Part shown: one piece after another, positions 8,316 to 53,297 of the stretch
How positions within the stretch are numbered: the stretch's first letter is position 1
How the letters are laid out: each line of letters starts with the position of its first letter
The notes under the pieces: generated by a model
Told to the model about the DNA's origin: nothing
The model's input: only the letters and a program-made list of their open reading frames with translations
Database searches by the model: none
Position numbers and translations under genes: made by a program
Assembly (NCBI GenBank): GCA_947176995.1
Contig: CAMWSY010000001.1
Coordinates: forward strand, 1 to 56,452
DNA length: 56,452 nucleotides
From: an uncultured Porphyromonadaceae bacterium
GTDB taxonomy: Bacteria; Bacteroidota; Bacteroidia; Bacteroidales; Muribaculaceae
Reading direction: 5' to 3'

Positions 8316-8341
8316 TTTTATTTATCGCGAAGATAAAGTAG

Positions 8342-8367
8342 GGACGCACGGTCGTGCGTCCTGTTTT
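8342..8367 (+). terminator. REP family B hairpin acting as a likely terminator of the GH43 gene
   Basis: ggacgcacg-gt-cgtgcgtcc followed by tgtttt. The same hairpin, preceded by gtag, recurs at 35602 and 45705. Confidence 0.55.
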
Positions 8368-8433
8368 ATATGTGCGTGTTCGTGTAGAGGCTTTGCGCCA
8401 GCATGGGTGCTTTATAAATTGGATTAGATGTAT

Positions 8434-8441
8434 TATATTTG
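8434..8441 (+). promoter_or_regulatory. Candidate -7 promoter box (tatatttg) for the GH38 gene
   Basis: Exact TAnnTTTG 59 bp upstream of the ATG at 8500. Confidence 0.45.
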
Positions 8442-8499
8442 CAATAACCTACATGCGGTAGGTCTAATACCTCGATTCATCCAATTGCTTGTAATATAA

Positions 8500-11400
8500 A
8501 TGCGTTTATTAAAGAAAATTGCCATTATACTGACCGGTGCGCTCGTGTGCCCGGCGATCAAGGCTGAAGATAAGACTGTCTATGCGGTCTCCGATTCTCA
8601 TCTCGATACGCAATGGAACTGGGACGTGCGTACATCCATACGCGACTATCTCAGGTACACTTTAGGCCAGAATCTTCTGCTCCTCAGTCAGCACCCCGAC
8701 TATATTTTCAATTTTGAGGGAGGGGTGAAATATGCTTGGATGAAAGAGTATTACCCTGATCAGTATGAGCTGATGAAGCAGTATATCCGTCAGGGACGCT
8801 GGCATGTGGCCGGGTCAAGCTGGGATGCCAACGACGTCAATATCCCTTCCATCGAGTCACAGCTCCGCAACATCATGCTCGGTCAAAATTTCTTCCGTGA
8901 CGAGCTTGGCGTGGAGAGCACCGACATATTTCTTCCCGACTGTTTTGGATTTGGCTGGACTCTCCCCACTGTCGCACGCCACTGCGGTCTGATCGGTTTC
9001 TCCTCGCAGAAGATCGGATGGCGCACACATCCGTTTTTTGAGAATGACAGGAAATATCCGTTTGGTGTGGGGCTTTGGAAAGGTGTCGACGGCGATACCA
9101 TCATGATGGTGCACGGCTACAGCTACACCCACACATGGGACGGCGAGGATATCTCTCACAGCAAGGAGCTTGAAAAACTGGCCGATGAAAACGCCGGCAA
9201 CATAGTCTATCACTACTATGGCGTGGGCGACCGGGGTGGATCACCCACAATCGGCTCTATACGGTCGGTCGAGCGCGGCATCCGCGGCGATGGGCCTCTC
9301 AAGATCATAAGCGCCACGAGCGACCGGCTGTACCTCGACATGCTGCCATACTCGTCTCATCCCGAGTTGCCCGTCTACGACGATGAGATGCTCATGGACG
9401 TCCACGGCAACGGCTGCTACACGGCAATGGCTGTCATGAAGTTCTACAATCGCCAGAACGAGCTTCTTGCCGACGCTGCCGAAAGGGCGGCTTCGGCGGC
9501 CGCTATTCTGGCTCGTAAGCCATATCCGACCGAGGCTTTGACCGACTCTTGGAAACGCTTTATCTGGCATCAGTTCCACGACGACATTACCGGCACAAGC
9601 GAGCCACCTTGCTATGAAATTTCGTTCAACGACGAGTTGCTGTCGCTCAAGCAATTCTCCGACCTCCTGACCGATGCTGCCACCGGCGTTGCCCAGAAGC
9701 TGAATACCAATGTCTCAGGCACGCCGCTCCTGTTGTTCAATCCGCTCGGCTATGAGACGACCGACCTTGTTGAGGTGCAGCTCGATGCGAAACAGCGTCC
9801 GGCCTCAGCAGTCGTCAAAGACCACAACGGCCGTTCTGTCAGGTCGCAGATCACAGGCTACGACAATGGCAAAGCCACTCTGCTCATCGAGGCTACCGTG
9901 CCGGCGATAGGCTTCGCAGTCTACGATGTCGCCCTGAAGGGAAGCGGCACTGATAAGGCTGTCTCGGTCAGCACCGTCCAGAATAGCGTCTACGCGCTCA
10001 CGTTTGACCGTAATGGCGATATCCCGTCGATTGTCGACAAGCGCACCGGCAAGCAGCTTGTGGCCGATGGTAAGGCTGTGCGGCTCGCCATGTTCCCCGA
10101 CAATGTTTCCACCATGTGGCCTGCTTGGGAGATACAGAAAGAAACTATCGACCGTGAACCGGTTTCGATCGGCGATGACGTGGATATCTCGCTCGTGGCC
10201 GATGGCGACCTGCTCAAGCGCGTCAGGATTACGAAGAAACATGGCGATTCAGAGTTCACACAGTACGTCAACCTCTATGAAGGGGCACTTGCTCCACGCA
10301 TCGACATTGTCAACGAGGTCGAGTGGCAGAGTCCCGCTTCGTTGCTCAAGGCAGAGTTCCCGCTCACGGTGTCCAATGAAAAAGCTACCTACGACCTCGG
10401 TGTGGGCGCAATAGAGCGTGGCAACAATGTGACGACAGCCTATGAGGTTCCCGCCCGTGAGTGGGTTGATCTGAGCGATGATGCCTATGGAGTTACGCTG
10501 CTGAGCAATTTCAAGTACGGGTGGGACAAGCCCTCCGACAACACATTGCGGCTGACACTTTTCCACTCGCCCGGAGTGACAAACCGCTACACCCATCAGG
10601 AGCGTCAGGACTTCGGACACCACGAGTTCACCTACTCCATCATCGGACACGATGGTAAGCTTGACCGTGCGTCGGCATCCAAGGCCGGCGAGCAGATGTC
10701 GCAGCGTTTCAAGGCGTTTGTTGTGCCTAAATCCAAGGGGGAGGGGCGCAGTCTGTCGCTCGCGACTACCGATGCCCCCAACGTCGTCATCAAAGCCATG
10801 AAGCGTGCCGACGACGGCGACGGCTACATTGTGCGCGTCTATGAGACGGCCGGAAAGCCCGCCCAAGCCAACATCGTGTTTGCCGACAAGCTCAATTCCG
10901 CCAAAAAAGCCGACGGAACGGAAAAGGTCATTGCCGAGGCTGCAACCGACGGCAATAAGCTGCCTGTTAGTCTTAAAGCCAACGGCATAGCCACCTACCG
11001 CGTCTATTTCGACAACATGGAAACCGAGTCACCGGCTATGGCTACAGTGCTACTTCCCTACAACTATTGCGGTATTACCTACAATAGTTTCCGCCATGAC
11101 GGACGTCTGAACGGAGGTCTTAGCTATCCGGCGGAGATGATGCCTAATGAAATTGTCAAAAACGGTGTGAAGTTTTCAATAGAGAAGCGGCCGGCTGAAA
11201 ACGTTGTCCTCTGCAGCGGCGACACTATCGCGCTCCCCGAAGGAAAGTGGGATAAACTCCATCTGCTCATGGCGGCCGACACCGAGGGACGTGACCTAAA
11301 GGCCGACCTGACCGTAGGCGAGAAGACCACAACAGTCAGCGTGCCCTCCTACACCGGCTATATAGGGCAGTGGGGACACCACCCGCACAACGCTCCCGGC

Positions 11401-12117
11401 GGTTACGACTGGGGACACTGGGGCTTCAGCAAGGGATATCTCAAGGAGCCGCGCGTGGTCTATGCCGGAACACACCGTCACAGCCTGACCCGCGATGAAA
11501 TCTATGAGAACGCCTATCTATGGGATGTGCAGCTCGATATCCCTGCCGGTGCTGACACTCTCATACTTCCCGACAACATCAATCTCATACTTGTTGCTGC
11601 CACTGTGACAGCCGGCGACCCGCAGCCTGCCGTGGCTGCCGCGCCGCTTTTCAAGACGGGCAACCGCGCGTCCGACAGCTATGATCCCACCACAACGCCT
11701 GAACCAGCCAATCTGCTCACACCCGAGATGATCGTTTCCTACACCGGTGGAGCGAAGGAGGCCAACCATCCGAGCAAACTTCTGGATAACAATATCGATA
11801 CGAAATGGTCGGATAAAACTCTTCCTGCAAATGTGGTTTTTGATCTCGGTGCTCCCACCACAGTGACCGGTTGGACAATCCTTTGCAATGAGCGCAAGAG
11901 GGCTGAGCGTCTTCTCTCAGATTGCTTCCTTCTCGGACGCAACAGCCCAGACGAGGAGTGGCACACTCTCGACCAATTTACAGGAAACAGCAGAAGTGAG
12001 ATCAACCGCCGTCTGACCAGTCCTGAGCAGGTGCGCTACATCAAACTGATGGTCACCCATCCGTCGCAAGAGCCCAACAGCAGGAACACCGGTATCGCTG
12101 AGTTCCGTCTCTATTGA
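8500..12117 (+). CDS. Glycoside hydrolase family 38 alpha-mannosidase with C-terminal F5/8 type C (discoidin/CBM32-like) domain
   Basis: Signal peptide. GH38 N-terminal metal-site motif SDSHLDTQWNWD and WHQFHDDITGTS. C-terminal LLDNNIDTKWSD...VVFDLGAPTTVTGW is discoidin-like. Confidence 0.85.
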   Translation: MRLLKKIAIILTGALVCPAIKAEDKTVYAVSDSHLDTQWNWDVRTSIRDYLRYTLGQNLLLLSQHPDYIFNFEGGVKYAWMKEYYPDQYELMKQYIRQGRWHVAGSSWDANDVNIPSIESQLRNIMLGQNFFRDELGVESTDIFLPDCFGFGWTLPTVARHCGLIGFSSQKIGWRTHPFFENDRKYPFGVGLWKGVDGDTIMMVHGYSYTHTWDGEDISHSKELEKLADENAGNIVYHYYGVGDRGGSPTIGSIRSVERGIRGDGPLKIISATSDRLYLDMLPYSSHPELPVYDDEMLMDVHGNGCYTAMAVMKFYNRQNELLADAAERAASAAAILARKPYPTEALTDSWKRFIWHQFHDDITGTSEPPCYEISFNDELLSLKQFSDLLTDAATGVAQKLNTNVSGTPLLLFNPLGYETTDLVEVQLDAKQRPASAVVKDHNGRSVRSQITGYDNGKATLLIEATVPAIGFAVYDVALKGSGTDKAVSVSTVQNSVYALTFDRNGDIPSIVDKRTGKQLVADGKAVRLAMFPDNVSTMWPAWEIQKETIDREPVSIGDDVDISLVADGDLLKRVRITKKHGDSEFTQYVNLYEGALAPRIDIVNEVEWQSPASLLKAEFPLTVSNEKATYDLGVGAIERGNNVTTAYEVPAREWVDLSDDAYGVTLLSNFKYGWDKPSDNTLRLTLFHSPGVTNRYTHQERQDFGHHEFTYSIIGHDGKLDRASASKAGEQMSQRFKAFVVPKSKGEGRSLSLATTDAPNVVIKAMKRADDGDGYIVRVYETAGKPAQANIVFADKLNSAKKADGTEKVIAEAATDGNKLPVSLKANGIATYRVYFDNMETESPAMATVLLPYNYCGITYNSFRHDGRLNGGLSYPAEMMPNEIVKNGVKFSIEKRPAENVVLCSGDTIALPEGKWDKLHLLMAADTEGRDLKADLTVGEKTTTVSVPSYTGYIGQWGHHPHNAPGGYDWGHWGFSKGYLKEPRVVYAGTHRHSLTRDEIYENAYLWDVQLDIPAGADTLILPDNINLILVAATVTAGDPQPAVAAAPLFKTGNRASDSYDPTTTPEPANLLTPEMIVSYTGGAKEANHPSKLLDNNIDTKWSDKTLPANVVFDLGAPTTVTGWTILCNERKRAERLLSDCFLLGRNSPDEEWHTLDQFTGNSRSEINRRLTSPEQVRYIKLMVTHPSQEPNSRNTGIAEFRLY

Positions 12118-12147
12118 CCCCTGCGCTGCGTGTGCCGTTTTTGGAGC

Positions 12148-19367: not shown

Positions 19368-19625
19368 AGTGTGTGACGGGGAGTGACATGGTGAATGCAC
19401 AAAGATAATCAATTCCCCCGAGTTCTCCGAGTACTCAGAACCCTCCGAGAACAACTACGACTGGATTGGCGGAGGTGCTATAGCATGGAAATTCAATGAC
19501 GTGGAGATTCCGATACTCTCCACAGAAGTAGTCCATAACGAAGTGAAGCACGTTGTGCCCTACTCTGAGATAACGCTGGTGCGTCACGACGACGGCACTT
19601 ACACGCTTAAACAAAACTGAGAAGA

Positions 19626-31360: not shown

Positions 31361-31397
31361 CACTCTCCACTCTCCGAGTGCTCTGAGTTCTCATGTA

Positions 31398-32810
31398 TCA
31401 CATCCCTTCTATCCTCCTGTCACGTCGTCGCAAAAACGACAGAAACGTGTCCATTAGGTCTCTTATGGCGATTGTAGCGTTCTCCACCTGCGCCGCATAC
31501 CGTTCAGCGCCCGCGCCACCACCGGGGTCTTGCCCCATGAGCACATCGCTTACCCCCGACACATCGCGGAACATCTGCATCTCCAGTTTCAGCAGATCCT
31601 TCGCCCCGATGTCGCCCACCGACGGGTTAAGCTGACGAGGCGGTTCGTCGCCCGGGCGGAACTTATAGGGGATGATACCGTCGGTCGCGCTCCATGCCTT
31701 TGCCACGTGAGTCAGCTCCATCCCCTCGGCGAGGCAGTCAACCGGAAACAGCAGAGCGCCTTTTGCCGAGCTTGCCATGATACGGTCGATCAGATTCACG
31801 AGGCGGTTCACATATTTCTGTTGGTCGATCACATCCTCCACCAGCGAGTGGACTTCGCCATCCACGAGCGGATAGAGCTTCATCACAAACGGGCATTCCT
31901 CGCCGCTCCCTTTCAGCTCCCTTCTCAGCACGGTTCCGTCGCCCAAGAGCCACTCACCGTGCCACCGCCGTTCTGTCACGATGCGGGTTTTCATCACATC
32001 GCGTCCCTCCTTGGTGCGCCGGGCATTTTCCCGGTTTATTGCTGTCATTTCCTCCGGCAGCCGCTCGCTGTAAGTGCCGGTTTCCATGTCATGGCATCTC
32101 ACGATCTCAGTCGGTTCTGCGCCCCACACCTCTATCACCCTCACCTTCCCATCCTCATCCGAGCAATTGAAATCCGGCTCATCCTCTGCGCCGCCGGTCA
32201 TTCTGCCTCCGTTTCCCGTCATCATCCCGCGGCATTTCTCACGCAGTTCCGATCTTCTCAATCGGTTTCCATTGCCAAATTCCATCACCACCTCCTCAGG
32301 TGTCAGGTCATGGAGCATACCCGCAAGCCTTATGTCGCGGCCTCGTGGATCGCGTGGCATCGACAGGAAGAAACGCGACAGCGGCACATTATGGACCGTC
32401 ACACCCTCCTCATCATCTCCCGGCCAGCGGCCTAACCGCTGAATTGCCGCCCCCGATATGAGAAACTCCTCAAGCAGGCGGCAGTCCAGTTCGTCAAGCT
32501 CATTGTCAATGTGCATTCGTGCAAGTTTCTGGCTGATTGTTCCCGGCTTGTCGGCCATCTTCTGGCGGTACACTCTGAACCGCCCCACGACGCATTTTAC
32601 AAGTTGCCGTATCATGTTGTTTGTCAGCGGCGGGCGTCCGTCCCGTGAGAGTATCTCCCTCTCCGTCGTTACTTTCCCTGTGTCAGGATCTCTCACCCGG
32701 TCATCCCATTGCCGTCCGTAGGTGAAACGCTTGTAGCGTTCGCGGCGGCTTCGCAGTTCACCACACGCCATCCACGCATCCGCCCCTCTTTCCATCAGTG
32801 TCCTCATCAC
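31398..32810 (-). CDS. Phage portal-like protein
   Basis: 470 aa. N-terminal RYKRFTYGRQWDD-type motif and overall pattern resemble podovirus-type portal/connector proteins (recognised from memory, no search). Sits in a capsid-gene context. Confidence 0.6.
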   Translation of the reverse strand: MMRTLMERGADAWMACGELRSRRERYKRFTYGRQWDDRVRDPDTGKVTTEREILSRDGRPPLTNNMIRQLVKCVVGRFRVYRQKMADKPGTISQKLARMHIDNELDELDCRLLEEFLISGAAIQRLGRWPGDDEEGVTVHNVPLSRFFLSMPRDPRGRDIRLAGMLHDLTPEEVVMEFGNGNRLRRSELREKCRGMMTGNGGRMTGGAEDEPDFNCSDEDGKVRVIEVWGAEPTEIVRCHDMETGTYSERLPEEMTAINRENARRTKEGRDVMKTRIVTERRWHGEWLLGDGTVLRRELKGSGEECPFVMKLYPLVDGEVHSLVEDVIDQQKYVNRLVNLIDRIMASSAKGALLFPVDCLAEGMELTHVAKAWSATDGIIPYKFRPGDEPPRQLNPSVGDIGAKDLLKLEMQMFRDVSGVSDVLMGQDPGGGAGAERYAAQVENATIAIRDLMDTFLSFLRRRDRRIEGM

Positions 32811-32847
32811 TCCATCTCACTTTATTTAATTCTTATCCACAACATCT

Positions 32848-32941
32848 CCGGCCGGAGGCCGGACATTTCCGTTAACCGCGGGCGTTTACGCCCGTGGACA
32901 GCTAACCATTCCACCCGTAATCGTCCCCGGCGGGGACGCAC
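32848..32941 (+). repeat. REP family A, copy 1 (three-hairpin unit)
   Basis: ccggcc-gga-ggccgg, gcgggcg-ttta-cgcccgt, cgtcccc-ggc-ggggacg. Near-identical units at 35693, 35897 and 53061. Confidence 0.8.
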
Positions 32942-32955
32942 AAAAAAATGTAAAC

Positions 32956-33498
32956 TTATTGCGCCCCTTTCCACCTTCCCATCGTCACCAATAATCCGCT
33001 GTCCATCGTGAAACTCTCCCCGTCACCTTCGGTTATCACCCGCAGGCACTCCACATCTTCACCTGCCGGAAAGCATCTTATCCGGTTCGGCTGAAACACC
33101 ACCGCCACCGGCTCTTCCGTACCCGCCTGCGTGTACTCCCAGCGTTGCAGTTCCGCCTCGCGGCTTTCGGGTGTCACGATCATCCCTTCACGTTTCCAGC
33201 CGCTTAGTCTCACCTCCGTGATTCTCCGGCAGCCGGTTGTCGCAGGCAGTTCCACATCCGTTCCGCCACCCGGTGCCGCTTTTGTCGTGCACCTGATGCT
33301 CACATCTTTGGTCTCGAGCATCCCGGCAGGAGCCGTGGCTACGACGTGATGCCACCAGTCCATCATCTCAGCCTCATCGAGAGCATCAGTGTCCGTTCCA
33401 TCCAGTTCCACCGTCACGTCCCCTCTCATGGGCTCCAGCCCACGGCGCAGTCGCCACTGTGCCATGAGCTGGGCTTTTGTGTAAGTAGTTAGCATCAC
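32956..33498 (-). CDS. Hypothetical protein in the head module (possible head-tail adaptor/head completion protein)
   Basis: 180-aa ORF 5 bp downstream of the capsid-like gene. The functional guess rests on position only. Confidence 0.5.
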   Translation of the reverse strand: MMLTTYTKAQLMAQWRLRRGLEPMRGDVTVELDGTDTDALDEAEMMDWWHHVVATAPAGMLETKDVSIRCTTKAAPGGGTDVELPATTGCRRITEVRLSGWKREGMIVTPESREAELQRWEYTQAGTEEPVAVVFQPNRIRCFPAGEDVECLRVITEGDGESFTMDSGLLVTMGRWKGAQ

Positions 33499-33503
33499 TC
33501 ACC

Positions 33504-34901
33504 TCATTTCTTAATGATGCGCATGTGAGCCGACGGGTATCGGAGCACAAGGCAGCTTGCCTCGGTTATCACCACAGCGTCAGTGTTGCGCTGTCCGCTC
33601 TTGCGCAGATTCAGTCGTTCGGTGCTGAAAGGAATGTGAGCGTACTTTGTGATGTATTCCGGATCGATCACAAGGCCGTCGGCACCGTGACCACACTGGT
33701 CAAACACTTCGCTCATCACCACATAGAGCGTTCCGAACTTTGTGCGTATCTCCGTGAAGTCCAGTCCCCATTTTGTCACGTTGTTCTGACCCGTCACCAC
33801 ATGCTGGTGGTCCATCGAGTTCAGGGCTGCAATCAGTTCGCTTCCTCCCACAAGGATTTTCTTCGACGAGCCGCCGTTGCCGGTGAAAGCCTCGCGGGTG
33901 ATCTCCACAAGAGTCTCGTGATCCATAGTGGAGTATTCCGTTTCCTTACCCGCTTGGTTCCATATACCACCCGTGAGCATCACCTCCTCCTGCTTGTAGG
34001 GATCGGTCAGGCGCATACGGCTGCCGAAAAGAAAACTTTTCTCCATGCCGAGGCGCATATCCACGATTGCCGATTCCTCTTGGTCGCTCAGCGTCCATCC
34101 AACCTCCTTGTCCGAGAGTTTCAGGAGCGTACTTTGCTCAATTTGAGCCTTAAATATTTGGCACAGATTGTAATCCTTGGTCGGAATGGCCTCATATTGT
34201 GCGGTCTGAACATCCAGTTCGGCGGCTGCGCGTCCCATTCTCACTATCTCCGTTCCCGCCGCCAGCGACGGCACGGCAAGCGATCCCCCCAGATAGTGAT
34301 TCACCGACATCACCGAGATATTTGCCGAGTCAGTCCCCGCCACATAGAGCACGAGACTTCCGTTGGGCTTCCCTTTGGCGTCCAAGGCCTTCACACTTGG
34401 CACAAGCACCGTGTCCGAGATAGAGAAACGAGCCGGATTCTCCACTTTCACCGACACCACACCCGTGTCAGCCTCCGATGCGGCAGCCACCTTGTCCGTC
34501 ATCGGCTTGTTGTCCACCGAATAGTAGTCAGCCTTCATGCTTCCGATGACGCGGCAGCCGCCCCAGCGCGAAATCTGATCGATAGGAGTAGCCATCGGAC
34601 GTATCTTCACCACACGGCGGTCTACAGCCGATCTGAGCAGTTCACCCGACGCTTCACGCGTGTTTGTCACCGTCAGCGGAGCGCCGTCAACACCGGCACC
34701 ACCAGCCATACCCGCGAGCACCACAGCCATAGTTACCCCTGTGCCGCCGTCATCGCTACCACCGAGCAGGAAATAGGCCAGCATAGCCACGAAACCAGCC
34801 ACCGTGATCGGCCCGTTATGCTTGCGCATAGCTTCGATCATCTTCACTGCCACCACCTTGAGCACCTTCAGTGCTACCTTCACAATCTTCTTGAAATTCA
34901 T
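33504..34901 (-). CDS. Phage major capsid-like protein (HK97-fold type suspected) with hydrophobic N-terminal extension
   Basis: 465 aa. From about aa 95 the sequence reads like a tailed-phage major capsid protein (from memory). Flanked by scaffold-like and portal-like genes. Confidence 0.6.
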   Translation of the reverse strand: MNFKKIVKVALKVLKVVAVKMIEAMRKHNGPITVAGFVAMLAYFLLGGSDDGGTGVTMAVVLAGMAGGAGVDGAPLTVTNTREASGELLRSAVDRRVVKIRPMATPIDQISRWGGCRVIGSMKADYYSVDNKPMTDKVAAASEADTGVVSVKVENPARFSISDTVLVPSVKALDAKGKPNGSLVLYVAGTDSANISVMSVNHYLGGSLAVPSLAAGTEIVRMGRAAAELDVQTAQYEAIPTKDYNLCQIFKAQIEQSTLLKLSDKEVGWTLSDQEESAIVDMRLGMEKSFLFGSRMRLTDPYKQEEVMLTGGIWNQAGKETEYSTMDHETLVEITREAFTGNGGSSKKILVGGSELIAALNSMDHQHVVTGQNNVTKWGLDFTEIRTKFGTLYVVMSEVFDQCGHGADGLVIDPEYITKYAHIPFSTERLNLRKSGQRNTDAVVITEASCLVLRYPSAHMRIIKK

Positions 34902-34960
34902 AGTATTAATCTGTTATTAAGTTGGTTATTAAATCTGATAATTTGCATCTTGTTTCTTTT

Positions 34961-35066
34961 GCCCGTGAAACGGGCTCAACAATTGCCAGCCCCGGGTGAC
35001 CGAAGGGAACCCGGGGTAAGGAGTTACCTTGGTTGAGCTGCGGAGCTGCGAAACAACTCCGTCTTT
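34961..35066 (+). repeat. Structured repeat motif D, copy 2 (between scaffold-like and capsid-like genes, opposite strand)
   Basis: gcccg-tgaaa-cgggc (34961-34975), ccccggg-tgaccgaagggaa-cccgggg (34990-35016), gagctgcggagctgcgaaac (35035-35054), hairpin cggag/ctccg (35041-45/35057-61) followed by tcttt. Confidence 0.7.
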
Positions 35067-35182
35067 GTACGCCCGGCCGTCTACGTCAGGAACGTACTAC
35101 CCGTAAATTAGGCAATGCCTGAGACTTGTTCGGTACTATCCTCCTTAACGTCCTGTTCCCATTCTCTGCGACTCTCCCTCTC

Positions 35183-35479
35183 TCACTCCCACACGCTTCT
35201 TCGCATCTCCCGTAAAATCATCACCGCGTCCTCCCCGTCATCATCATCCGCGCACTCGGGGCGTTTCCCGTGTCCCGGACGCTCCATCAGCGCATCCACC
35301 GCCTCATTTCGCCCGCGCAGATACCCGCGGTTCTCCGCATCCCTCACCATCTGTTCCACCATCTCAGGAGTCAGCGCCTCCGTCGGTTCTTCCTCAGCCA
35401 CAGCAGTAGCCGGTGTTTCCGCAGTCACCTCCTGCGGCACTTCGGTGCTCTCGGGCACCAGATCCATTTCGTTTTCCAT
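35183..35479 (-). CDS. Small acidic protein, scaffold-like (first gene of the head module)
   Basis: 98 aa. Glu/Thr/Pro-rich acidic N-terminus, a helical AENRGYLRGRNEAVDAL segment and a DDDDGED tract. Position directly upstream of the capsid-like gene. Confidence 0.5.
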   Translation of the reverse strand: MENEMDLVPESTEVPQEVTAETPATAVAEEEPTEALTPEMVEQMVRDAENRGYLRGRNEAVDALMERPGHGKRPECADDDDGEDAVMILREMRRSVWE

Positions 35480-35595: not shown

Positions 35596-36075
35596 GAGTA
35601 GGGACGCACGGCCCGTGCGTCCTCTTTCCTCCTTCCCCTTCCGCGTTCTCTGAGTCCTCTGAGTTCTCCGCGTCCTCCTCAAGATAGCCCATCCGGCCGG
35701 AGGCCGGATATTTGGTTAACCGCGGGCGTTTACGCCCGTGGACAGCCGAGCACGACTTACCACTTATCGTCCCCGGAGGGGACGCACCCAAGATTAGCAA
35801 CCTTATTTGAACCGCATTGCACGGCCCGTGCGTCCTCTTTCCTCCTTCCCCTCCGCGTTCTCTGAGTTCTCCGCGTCCTCCTCAAGATAGCCCAATCCGG
35901 CCGGAGGCCGGACATTTGGTTAACCGCGGGCGTTTACGCCCGTGGACAGCCGAGCACGACTTACCACTTATCGTCCCCGGAGGGGACGCACCCAAGATTA
36001 GCAACCTTATTTGAACCGCATTGCACGCCCCGTGGGTCCTCTTTCCTCCTTCCCCTCCGCGTTCTCTGCGTTCTC
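35596..36075 (+). repeat. Tandem array (about 2.3 copies, period 213 then 204 bp) of a composite REP unit (B hairpin + CT-rich spacer + family A)
   Basis: The anchor cacggcccgtgcgtcc (cacgccccgtgggtcc in the third unit) starts at 35607, 35820 and 36024. Unit 1 carries an extra 9 bp (cctctgagt). Confidence 0.85.
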
Positions 36076-36170
36076 CTCAAAATAGCGCCGGAGGCGCGTT
36101 ATTGTGATTAACCTCAGGCGACCGATAGGGAGCCTGAGGAGAAATCCTGAGCCTCGGAGAGGCGACGTTA

Positions 36171-40155: not shown

Positions 40156-40215
40156 TGGTAAGACATTAGGAATTGGGCATCGCAGATGCCATAACCCGGC
40201 GAAGCCGGAGCGAAC

Positions 40216-40247
40216 CCCCATCCTGTGAGCTTCTTCACAGGATGGGG
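40216..40247. other. 13-bp perfect hairpin (ccccatcctgtga / tcacaggatgggg)
   Basis: Exact inverted repeat with loop gcttct. Only a weak U tract (ttg) follows on the + strand. Confidence 0.5.
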
Positions 40248-40398
40248 TTGCTGCGTAATAAGAGAAACAGTCTTGCAAAGACTGAACTTTAATTCATCGC
40301 ATCCACTCATTTTTTACCCCTTTTTTGTTGGATAAAACCTCACCCCTGCGTAACTTTACATCAGCAATCCGATATGCACTTGTGGCAATTTGTAACTG

Positions 40399-45639: not shown

Positions 45640-45704
45640 TCTCCCGGCCACACACCATCCGACTTGTGAGGCTGTGTCATAAATGCCTCTTTCGCGGAGA
45701 GTAG

Positions 45705-45725
45705 GGACGCACGGTTCGTGCGTCC
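45705..45725 (+). repeat. REP family B hairpin
   Basis: ggacgcacg-gtt-cgtgcgtcc preceded by gagagta, as at 35602 and 8342. Confidence 0.75.
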
Positions 45726-45821
45726 TCTTGATTATCAGCCCGCAAAGTAACATACCTACTTCCGACCTGTCATCAAAGCTCCGGGCCCTCCACCTCCAAG
45801 TCCGTGCGCTCTGCGCTGTAG

Positions 45822-45955
45822 GGGCGTTGCGCAAGCACGCCCATTAGCCCGTGCAACGGGCGTCACAAGTGCCAGCACCGGGTGACCGCAGGGAACCCGG
45901 TGAAAATATGTGTATTATCATCGAGCTGCGGAGCTGCGACACACCTCCGACTTTT
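45822..45955 (+). repeat. REP family E hairpin plus structured repeat motif D, copy 3
   Basis: E: gggcgt-tgcgcaagc-acgccc (45822-45842). D: gcccg-tgcaa-cgggc (45847-61), caccggg-tgaccgcagggaa-cccggtg (45876-45902), gagctgcggagctgcgacac (45923-42), cggag/ctccg (45929-33/45945-49) then acttttaaaa. Confidence 0.7.
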
Positions 45956-46029
45956 AAAATCGCCACGCACTCTCAGAGTTCTCCGATATCTCCGAGCTCT
46001 CGGATTAATTCCACAAATCGTGATAATCT

Positions 46030-46752: not shown

Positions 46753-46956
46753 GACCTCATGAATTTAAGTTTTGTGCAAATAAAGCCCTAATTTTAATAA
46801 ACCGCAAACTTTTCGTTGGAAAAAAGTAATAGTCTACGTCCGCAAACCGTCCGACCCGTCTGAATCGTCTGACACGTCCGACTTGTATGGCTGCGTACCA
46901 CGGTGCATCCCGCTCCCTTCCCCTTCGGCGTTCTCCGAGATCTCCGCGTCCTCTTA

Positions 46957-47904
46957 TCAGTACACCAGCTCGATATTGTCAATCCACAGCGTCTGTCCCG
47001 GCGTACCCACGTAGGCCGTGCCGCAAGCTGCCGAAGCCATGATCAGAATATGCGTCGGCTTGGCATCGGGGGAGTCCCACCCCACTTCATGCACAGGCAC
47101 CATCTTACCCTTGCTGTTGATGGCATAGTAGCACTTCTCCTCGGGAATCAGGCCCATCCACGGCTGGTAATAAGGCTGTTTGGTTATATCACCGTAGTTC
47201 ACGTCAAGAGTGTGCCCCTCGACCCAGTCGGTCGTTTTGAAAAACCGCTCGCGTCCTGTGCCCACGCGCTTGGCATAGATTTTCCCGTTCTCCTCCCAGC
47301 GCCGTTGCAGGATGATGAACACCTCCGAGCTGTCGCGCCCCGCGATCTCCTTCTTCTTGCTGAAACCGGTGCAGATGATACGGTGATTCACGTTTGGGCA
47401 GTTGACCTTGTAGTCGAACTTCAGTGCCTTCGGGCGTCCTGTGAACGGCACTCCCATCTCCATCTTGCTGTAAGGGTCGGAACTCGACTTCACAGGCTCC
47501 ATCATCTGCCCGAGAAACATCGAGCCACCCACAAGCACCTCTATATTCACCAGTCCCAGTGCTTTTATAGAGTCCAGTTTGGTGGTAAGTTTCACGCAAC
47601 GCCCTGCGCCATGCTTGTCAGGATAAACGGCCACGCTCCCTTTGTTCACCCCCACTACACGGGCATAAACGTTTGATGTAGCCCACGGTGAACTTGTCGA
47701 CGAGTAAGCCTTCGCACCTTTTATCGTGTCGTTCGGCCCTATCTCATAGAGCGTTTTCGTCTTGCCTCCGATGATGCCTGATTCCGGTATCTCGCGCACC
47801 ACCCACTGGTCGAAGTTGCTGTATTTGAGTTGCTGCTGGGCGTCTGCGGTACTCAGCCCGGCGATTATCGAGAGTATGATGAAAGCAATTTTCCGTGTAA
47901 TCAT
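46957..47904 (-). CDS. PCMD (putative carbohydrate metabolism domain) protein, secreted
   Basis: Signal peptide, 315 aa, C-terminal ...TLWIDNIELVY typical of PCMD-domain proteins (from memory). Confidence 0.5.
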   Translation of the reverse strand: MITRKIAFIILSIIAGLSTADAQQQLKYSNFDQWVVREIPESGIIGGKTKTLYEIGPNDTIKGAKAYSSTSSPWATSNVYARVVGVNKGSVAVYPDKHGAGRCVKLTTKLDSIKALGLVNIEVLVGGSMFLGQMMEPVKSSSDPYSKMEMGVPFTGRPKALKFDYKVNCPNVNHRIICTGFSKKKEIAGRDSSEVFIILQRRWEENGKIYAKRVGTGRERFFKTTDWVEGHTLDVNYGDITKQPYYQPWMGLIPEEKCYYAINSKGKMVPVHEVGWDSPDAKPTHILIMASAACGTAYVGTPGQTLWIDNIELVY

Positions 47905-53005: not shown

Positions 53006-53033
53006 CAAAATGCAGAGCGGGCACAACCTGTTT

Positions 53034-53201
53034 GTAGGGGTGTTGCGGCAGCACGCCCATCCGGCCGGAGGCCGGACATTTGGTTAACCGCGGGCGTTTA
53101 CGCCCGTGGACAGCCGAGTACGACTTATCACTTCGTCCCCGGCGGGGACGCACCAAAATTGGCAAACGTTATTTGAACCGTATTGCACGGTTCGTGCGTC
53201 C
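53034..53201 (+). repeat. REP mosaic: family E hairpin (53038-53058), family A unit (53061-53153), partial family B hairpin (53185-53197)
   Basis: gtaggggtgttgcggcagcacgccca parallels 45819-45843. The A unit is near-identical to 35693-35787. The B fragment is gcacg-gtt-cgtgc. Confidence 0.8.
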
Positions 53202-53297
53202 TGCTTTATCTCAAATCGTTACATCCATGTACTACACCCGTGCATTCCAGAAAACACAATTTTGCCCCACCACACACACATATCGCTAAAAAATAAA

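Follow-up and report, generated by a model that had tools for sequence, protein, structure and literature searches.

The locus studied here raises the question of whether a structured, repeated DNA motif lying between a capsid gene and its upstream neighbor serves the capsid cassette or is a dispersed repeat that came to lie there by insertion. The window, that is, the whole stretch of DNA that was analyzed, is the entire 56,452-nt contig of a Muribaculaceae MAG. The genome is represented by this one 56-kb contig, to which all copy counts and orientations refer. Its content is that of an ordinary chromosome, including a tRNA, a GH43/SusC/SusD locus, ValS, TsaD, UvrD, GltX, SmpB, and others, and no transposase, integrase, or RAYT gene was found within it.

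Three copies of the motif, termed motif D, were located, all on the + strand, and every string quoted for them in the initial annotation was recovered in place. Their cores span 143-251 (copy 1; covariance-model match of 114.7 bits, also delimited by alignment), 34961-35066 (copy 2; 129.6 bits), and 45847-45954 (copy 3; 119.8 bits). Copy 2 lies between a 98-aa ORF and an SU10 capsid gene and is antisense to both. The conserved blocks of the motif occur three times each in the window versus about 0-0.3 times expected from shuffles. The proposed order of a hairpin P1, a linker, a second hairpin P2, and then a tandem octamer was confirmed in all three copies. Between-copy similarity is limited to two blocks, with a spacer of 18-20 nt between them. 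Block 1 consists of P1, the linker, and P2 (about 60 nt, 85-87% identity among copies), and block 2 (17-32 nt) of the octamer GAGCTGCG in two tandem units plus a few bases.

P1 reads GCCCG-TG[A/C]A[A/G]-CGGGC, and the linker, present in every copy, reads ACAA[G/T]TGCCAG (ACAAKTGCCAG). The P2 stems are CACCCGG/CCGGGTG, CCCCGGG/CCCGGGG, and CACCGGG/CCCGGTG, enclosing the loop TGACCG[A/C]AG[A/G]GAA, and the tandem octamer is GAGCTGCGGAGCTGCGA[A/C]AC. In copy 2, P1 (34961-34975) forms a 6-bp GC-rich stem with a GAA (G-N-A) triloop and is followed by the conserved unpaired linker, ..ACAATTGCCAG, delimited at 34976-34989 by alignments. P2 of this copy (34989-35017) has a G.U closing pair, a 7-bp stem containing two compensated pairs, and a 13-nt "loop." The spacer (35017-35034) is conserved among copies in length but not in sequence. 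The two octamers follow at 35035-35050, and a weak candidate hairpin, CGGAG...CTCCG, is predicted at 35041-35061, all on the + strand. Beyond the three copies, the single octamer has only two matches in the window, both within genes. T-rich runs lie 3' of copies 2 and 3.

We then considered whether these hairpins are maintained. The paired substitutions reported for P2 proved genuine, with two base pairs compensated on both sides. In an alignment of six sequences, 4 of 500 shuffles reached the observed covariation score, a weak but positive support drawn from three paralogue types and close orthologues only. Sliding the P2 partners out of register abolished pairing. Both the T.G wobble at the P1 closing pair of copy 1 and the G.T closing pair of P2 can pair only on the + strand, and block 1 folded slightly better on this strand than on the - strand. 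These results indicate that the P1 and P2 hairpins are robust and that their stems are maintained. Judged from its sequence, the 13-nt P2 "loop" can extend the helix by a U-A pair, tandem G.A pairs, and two C-G pairs, ending, as P1 does, in a G-N-A triloop. The variable base of this loop is A in copies 1 and 2, C in copy 3, and G in the orthologous loci L270 and L139, and we read it as the putative N of the triloop.

The remaining structural proposals of the initial annotation fared less well. The CGGAG/CTCCG hairpin is indeed predicted by folding; it shows zero covariation, and one or two of its pairs are broken in copy-1-type sequences. The terminator/antiterminator-type switch, in which the 3' arm of this hairpin would pair upstream, was not borne out: the pairing strings are present, but not above chance. 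The longest complementary runs gave shuffle p values of 0.03, 0.09, and 0.43, and the duplex energies of cognate pairs were no better than those of non-cognate pairs. Pairing between linker and spacer was likewise rejected, showing no gain over shuffles or non-cognate pairs. A promoter-like TAATTTG had been pointed out at 34939-34945. The string is present, but it is non-canonical and not conserved, reading AAATTTG in the conspecific locus L270. No Bacteroidota-type promoter box is shared upstream of the copies, copy 3 having no AT-rich box, and a consensus promoter/terminator scan returned nothing associated with motif D; a canonical terminator is absent.

The conserved blocks also differ from their surroundings in how fast they change. 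Counted over orthologous copies between strains and a recent paralogue, substitutions were found at 5 of 283 block positions (1.8%), compared with 9 of 77 in the spacer (11.7%) and 11-15% in the flanks. When only independent comparisons were retained, the counts were 4/216 for the blocks and 7/57 for the spacer. The linker had a substitution at 1 of 56 positions compared among orthologues and the recent paralogue. The substitution rate of the blocks is thus about one-sixth of that in the spacer and flanks, which indicates that the blocks are constrained and were kept after insertion, and copies that are purely selfish and decaying are therefore unlikely. This pattern points to retained function or to homogenization between copies.

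A coding origin was also weighed, in which the P1-P2 block would be a remnant or the N-terminus of a small protein-coding sequence. The six variable P2 sites are spaced 3 nt apart and are synonymous in one + strand frame, reading VPAPGDRREPG, and this frame is open across the block in all copies. The same sites are equally well accounted for as two base pairs and the triloop N, and one frame of the opposite strand likewise leaves the changes synonymous, which shows the weakness of the frame test. No start or stop codon is common to the copies, and the frame of the octamer block differs in each of them. A six-frame chimeric query against 5.8 billion proteins found no called protein and returned one unrelated weak match. 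On the grounds of the missing shared start or stop, the shifting octamer frame, and the lack of a protein match, the coding reading of the period-3 sites was rejected, and we regard it as very improbable.

We next turn to the capsid region. The SU10 capsid gene (Pfam SU10_MCP) occupies 33504-34901 and the 98-aa ORF upstream of it 35183-35479, both on the minus strand, and the 281-nt gap reported between them was confirmed. The label "scaffold-like" given to the 98-aa ORF is unsupported, as the ORF has no Pfam or PHROG match. The two genes belong to a four-gene island comprising the 98-aa ORF, the SU10-type major capsid protein, a 180-aa ORF that also lacks Pfam and PHROG matches, and a P22-like portal. 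Housekeeping genes lie around the island, and no terminase or tail genes were found beside it. Neither a prophage nor a phage genome, the "capsid module" is here a cassette. Homologues of the capsid protein number 2601 at E<1e-20, and the island gives the impression of a capsid-plus-portal unit that is inherited vertically and may have been domesticated. Synteny of the island (31398-35479 in the window, minus strand) is kept at the related loci L136 (9609-13355), L137 (6837-10610), L266 (1-1370), and L279 (786-4532), and its small ORFs measure 98-105 aa and 176-180 aa among Muribaculaceae lineages.

If motif D worked for the capsid/portal cassette as a dedicated antisense or packaging-type RNA, as speculated in the initial annotation, it should accompany this cassette elsewhere. 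Whereas 281 nt separate the small ORF from the capsid gene in the window, the corresponding gap measures 74 nt in L136 and L279-L281, 66 nt in L137/L138, and 35 nt in L266/L267, and motif D is absent from all of these orthologous cassettes of other lineages (n = 8; nhmmer and covariance model). Thus, the suggested check for co-occurrence with capsid genes came out negative: sister and more distant Muribaculaceae carry the cassette without the motif, and copies 1 and 3 and a further copy at locus L283 lack capsid neighbors. Copy 1 adjoins a tRNA/GH43 gene and copy 3 a phosphoesterase gene, and the upstream gene of the L283 copy is a co-oriented GH43 gene. In 2.9 million IMG/VR contigs, scans with both blocks gave only chance matches inside coding sequences, and no phage or plasmid record was matched by copy 2 in BLAST searches. 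The one point in favor of the dedicated RNA is the position of copy 2 between the 98-aa ORF and the capsid gene. Because the cassettes of relatives are free of the motif, the other copies are distant from capsid genes, and viral and plasmid matches are lacking, the reading is unsupported; it is further contradicted by the insertion of copy 2 described below, and we consider it extremely improbable. Motif D recalls the phi29 prohead RNA (pRNA) as a proposed structured RNA of about 100-170 nt beside head genes but differs in having no capsid or portal association across relatives or viral collections. These results indicate that motif D has no specific relation to the capsid cassette.

Database searches agreed with the earlier impression that the motif belongs to no named RNA family, since motif D has no Rfam match at or near the gathering score, the families covered including FopS, riboswitches, omega RNA/HEARO, and group II intron domains. 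In the window, only a tRNA fragment at 1-52 reached the gathering score. Around the copies, nothing was found at E<=1, and at E<=10 two weak matches (9-11 bits, E 8-9) appeared around copy 2. A 17-base pattern searched in metagenome contigs gave chance matches only among the matches listed (at least 120). In ~200 kb of related Muribaculaceae loci, neither nhmmer nor the covariance model detected copies of motif D; the restriction of the motif to one species is stated for these related loci.

How copy 2 came to lie within the cassette is seen from comparison with the sister lineage. Copy 2 occupies less than half of a ~246-nt segment (34934-35179, + strand, ends within 3 nt) that is absent from this lineage, and alignment with L266/L267 (85-90% DNA identity) shows the empty site as ...GGTTATTAAA|CTCTCACTCC... 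No terminal inverted repeats were found at the insertion, whose ends read TCTGATAATTTG... and ...GCGACTCTCCCT, and the junctions hold at most a 3-nt TCT repeat, as judged against a comparison lineage that is ~10% diverged. Orthologues of copy 2 are present at the conspecific loci L270 and L139 (strains about 98% identical) and those of copy 3 at the conspecific loci L285 and L286. Copy 1 is contained in a ~350-nt composite repeat (126-476, + strand) that is 89% identical to positions 8245-8592 of L283, a different locus in the conspecific MAG GCA_029061905.1. This composite is missing from its own locus in the 98% identical strain represented by L284. At all three loci, motif D is absent from sister lineages. 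Short-read contigs terminate inside motif D at L139, L286, and the start of L283, as is expected of a repeat.

An element on the + strand at 36085-36169 is weakly related to motif D (covariance-model match of 18.1 bits, E about 0.01-0.04). It follows the same plan, with a hairpin, a 14-nt linker, and a 7-bp stem, CCTCAGG/CCTGAGG, that differs from the P2 stems and encloses the loop CGACCGATAGGGAG (GACCGA.AGGGA), which resembles that of motif D. The conspecific loci L270 and L271 lack it, unlike the window. Its 5' part is common to a 185-nt element described below. At the site of copy 3, the window holds 380 nt of repeats (45643-46022), compared with 1.2 kb in relatives, where a 156/157-aa gene lies 3' of the metallophosphoesterase gene (L266, 11000-12210; L277, 1486-2876). 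A block at 8342-12137 carrying a GH38 alpha-mannosidase gene, with GTAG hairpins at its left edge, is absent from the sister lineage L264. In GCA_029061905.1, the junction of this block instead carries the 350-nt motif D composite and a different downstream gene. Since the junction differs between strains, the repeats mark a rearrangement hotspot.

Motif D is accompanied by at least four other intergenic repeat families in the window, including a 185-204-nt element, 9-nt arrays, and two kinds of GTAG hairpin. Every copy of these families, like every copy of motif D, lies on the + strand irrespective of how the flanking genes are directed. The + strand has a negative GC skew, which suggests only that it is the C-rich strand over most of the window. 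A GTAG-tagged GC-rich hairpin module (family D20; 45817-45846, + strand) stands directly 5' of copy 3, and the same module is found 5' of a different repeat at 53033. GTAG palindromes of the first kind lie at 8338, 35598, and 45701 (GTAGGGACGCACGGnnCGTGCGTCC) and those of the second kind at 45818 and 53034 (GTAGGGGyGTTGCG..AGCACGCCC), all on the + strand. The 185-204-nt repeat is a chain of four hairpins, found at 32843-32955, 35687-35872, 35891-36076, and 53055-53202. Two of its copies stand in tandem upstream of the 98-aa ORF, and it recurs between the portal gene and the 180-aa ORF; the repeat is absent in the sister lineage, and the tandem pair is absent in the conspecific L270. The 9-nt periodic arrays (TCTCCGAGT-like) are intergenic, have a single orientation, and often flank other repeat families (19415-19448, 31370-31392, 35638-35691, 35849-35894, 36046-36089, 45967-46015, and 46924-46967).

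Taken together, motif D is a genuine repeat that is non-coding and built of hairpins, the stems of which are preserved through paired substitutions, and among the readings offered in the initial annotation, that of a REP-like single-stranded DNA element fits the evidence best. The reading that we favor, with moderate confidence, is that motif D is a ~106-nt module of a group of lineage-restricted, small dispersed intergenic repeats in one Muribaculaceae species, either REP/BIME-like or another mosaic hairpin repeat, which would be recognized by a protein when its + strand is folded as a single strand. Such a repeat would spread into intergenic DNA by insertion or recombination, alone or within larger composites such as the ~246-nt segment at copy 2 and the ~350-nt repeat at copy 1. 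The putative working form is the folded + strand, whose hairpins may be recognized together with the unpaired linker and the octamers. Mobilization in trans as single-stranded DNA by an HUH/Y1 enzyme (RAYT or IS200/IS605-like) appears the most likely route, a proposal made because of the common orientation, the adjoining GTAG hairpins, the G-N-A mini-hairpins, and the absence of terminal inverted repeats or of a convincing target duplication. After insertion, the copies may act like REPs, as protein-binding or transcript-end elements, which would explain the conservation of the blocks between strains. Against this stand the absence of a transposase or RAYT gene from the 56-kb contig, the absence of a GTAG or CGTC tag from motif D itself, and the lack of terminal inverted repeats or a convincing target duplication at the one clean junction. 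In addition, the covariation statistics come from only three paralogue types, and purifying selection on the blocks of orthologous copies would be unexpected for purely selfish decay and also fits a functional RNA.

The latter property, the six-fold slower change of the blocks, is shared ground with two further readings. Motif D could be a multicopy structured small RNA, expressed from its own gene or from the 3' end of upstream transcripts, with the hairpins as a scaffold and the unpaired linker or the octamers as a protein-binding or seed region. The compensated pairs of P2 and the wobbles that are valid on the + strand only are compatible with this, as are the T-rich runs after copies 2 and 3 and the co-orientation with the upstream gene at three of four loci (the tRNA, the phosphoesterase gene, and GH43 in L283), and multicopy small RNA families, with FopS of Bacteroides as a precedent, are known in Bacteroidota (PMC11697453). 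However, the copies have no shared promoter, the heptamer of copy 2 being mutated in L270, no canonical terminator, and no Rfam match, and the last hairpin is broken in copy-1-type sequences. The motif is also embedded in strain-variable composites and insertions, is missing from the sister lineages at three loci, and in copy 2 runs antisense inside an operon. We therefore hold the small RNA to be possible but doubtful. A related reading, which we judge unlikely, is that of a functional structured RNA or single-stranded nucleic-acid element of Muribaculaceae that would be under selection in each copy, kept after the repeat machinery had spread it. It could be, for instance, a regulatory or protein-sponging RNA present in several copies, with the G-N-A hairpins as a scaffold and the tandem GAGCUGCG octamers as a binding site. 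Selection of this kind would account for a substitution rate six-fold lower in the blocks.

The dispersed repeat reading can be compared with known systems. REP/BIME sequences and their RAYT (Y1 HUH) transposases have been described in E. coli and Pseudomonas (PMC3333891, PMC3479197, and PMC3733652), and GTAG plus a palindrome is the REP signature (PMC3733652 and PMC3479197). A 2013 survey found GTAG REPs in Proteobacteria, Cyanobacteria, Chloroflexi, and PVC and reported none in Bacteroidetes (PMC3733652). Motif D resembles these elements in its intergenic GC-rich hairpins, mosaic clusters of modules, conserved linker motifs, variability between strains, GTAG palindromes beside its copies, paired stem changes, and blocks kept after insertion. 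A REP is a short, imperfect palindrome of 20-40 nt repeated between genes; P1 (15 nt) and P2 (27-29 nt) are intergenic hairpins of such a kind, but the unit that is conserved is the 106-nt composite. By contrast, motif D as a whole is not a single 20-40-nt palindrome but a ~106-nt unit with two different hairpins, a free spacer of fixed length, and a tandem octamer. Furthermore, a GTAG/CGTC tag does not adjoin P1 or P2 in all copies, separate GTAG hairpins lying nearby instead, the contig has no RAYT gene, and the copies share one orientation, whereas REPs alternate in BIMEs.

Non-autonomous elements derived from IS200/IS605 move by single-stranded "peel and paste" transposition (PMC6006769). 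They resemble motif D in having hairpins as recognition features, in strand-specific orientation, as seen for motif D and all repeats on the + strand of the window, and in lacking terminal inverted repeats and a target duplication, of which the copy 2 junctions show at most the 3-nt TCT repeat. Motif D differs in having no conserved target tetranucleotide 5' of its copies and no TnpA gene in the contig. Small dispersed repeats and MITEs, such as ERIC/RU, BOX, Correia, and the Porphyromonas MITEs (PMC3184786 and PMC4596501), are similar in size (100-350 nt), intergenic location, occasional presence in operons, modularity, and insertion polymorphism between strains. MITEs, however, are defined by terminal inverted repeats and target duplications, and the copy 2 junction shows none of the former and at most the 3-nt TCT repeat as a candidate for the latter. 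The RNA FopS measures 65-70 nt; it has a canonical promoter as well as a Rho-independent terminator, is listed in Rfam, and is shared by a family of species (PMC11697453). Motif D is like FopS/GibS in being a multicopy conserved non-coding sequence in Bacteroidota with a conserved unpaired stretch beside hairpins, but it has neither the size, the promoter, the terminator, the broad conservation, nor the Rfam match of FopS. On size, architecture, and the missing Rfam match, identity with FopS and other Bacteroides small RNA families was rejected.

These results remove a tempting link between a structured motif and a capsid cassette. They also show that at least one species of Muribaculaceae, an abundant mouse-gut family, carries dense, strand-polarized, strain-variable hairpin repeats, including GTAG palindromes. 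These repeats break short-read assemblies, insert inside operons, and mark sites of gene gain and loss, as at the GH38 block and the lost 157-aa gene, so that they bear on MAG quality, strain typing, and local gene regulation. That the blocks change slowly is compatible with a possible host function. A further hairpin-rich stretch at 40195-40289, 5' of an MBOAT gene, gave a weak covariance-model match (16 bits, E about 0.03-0.1) and has a conserved counterpart in a conspecific strain (L270, 7310-7404); it probably consists of unrelated hairpins.
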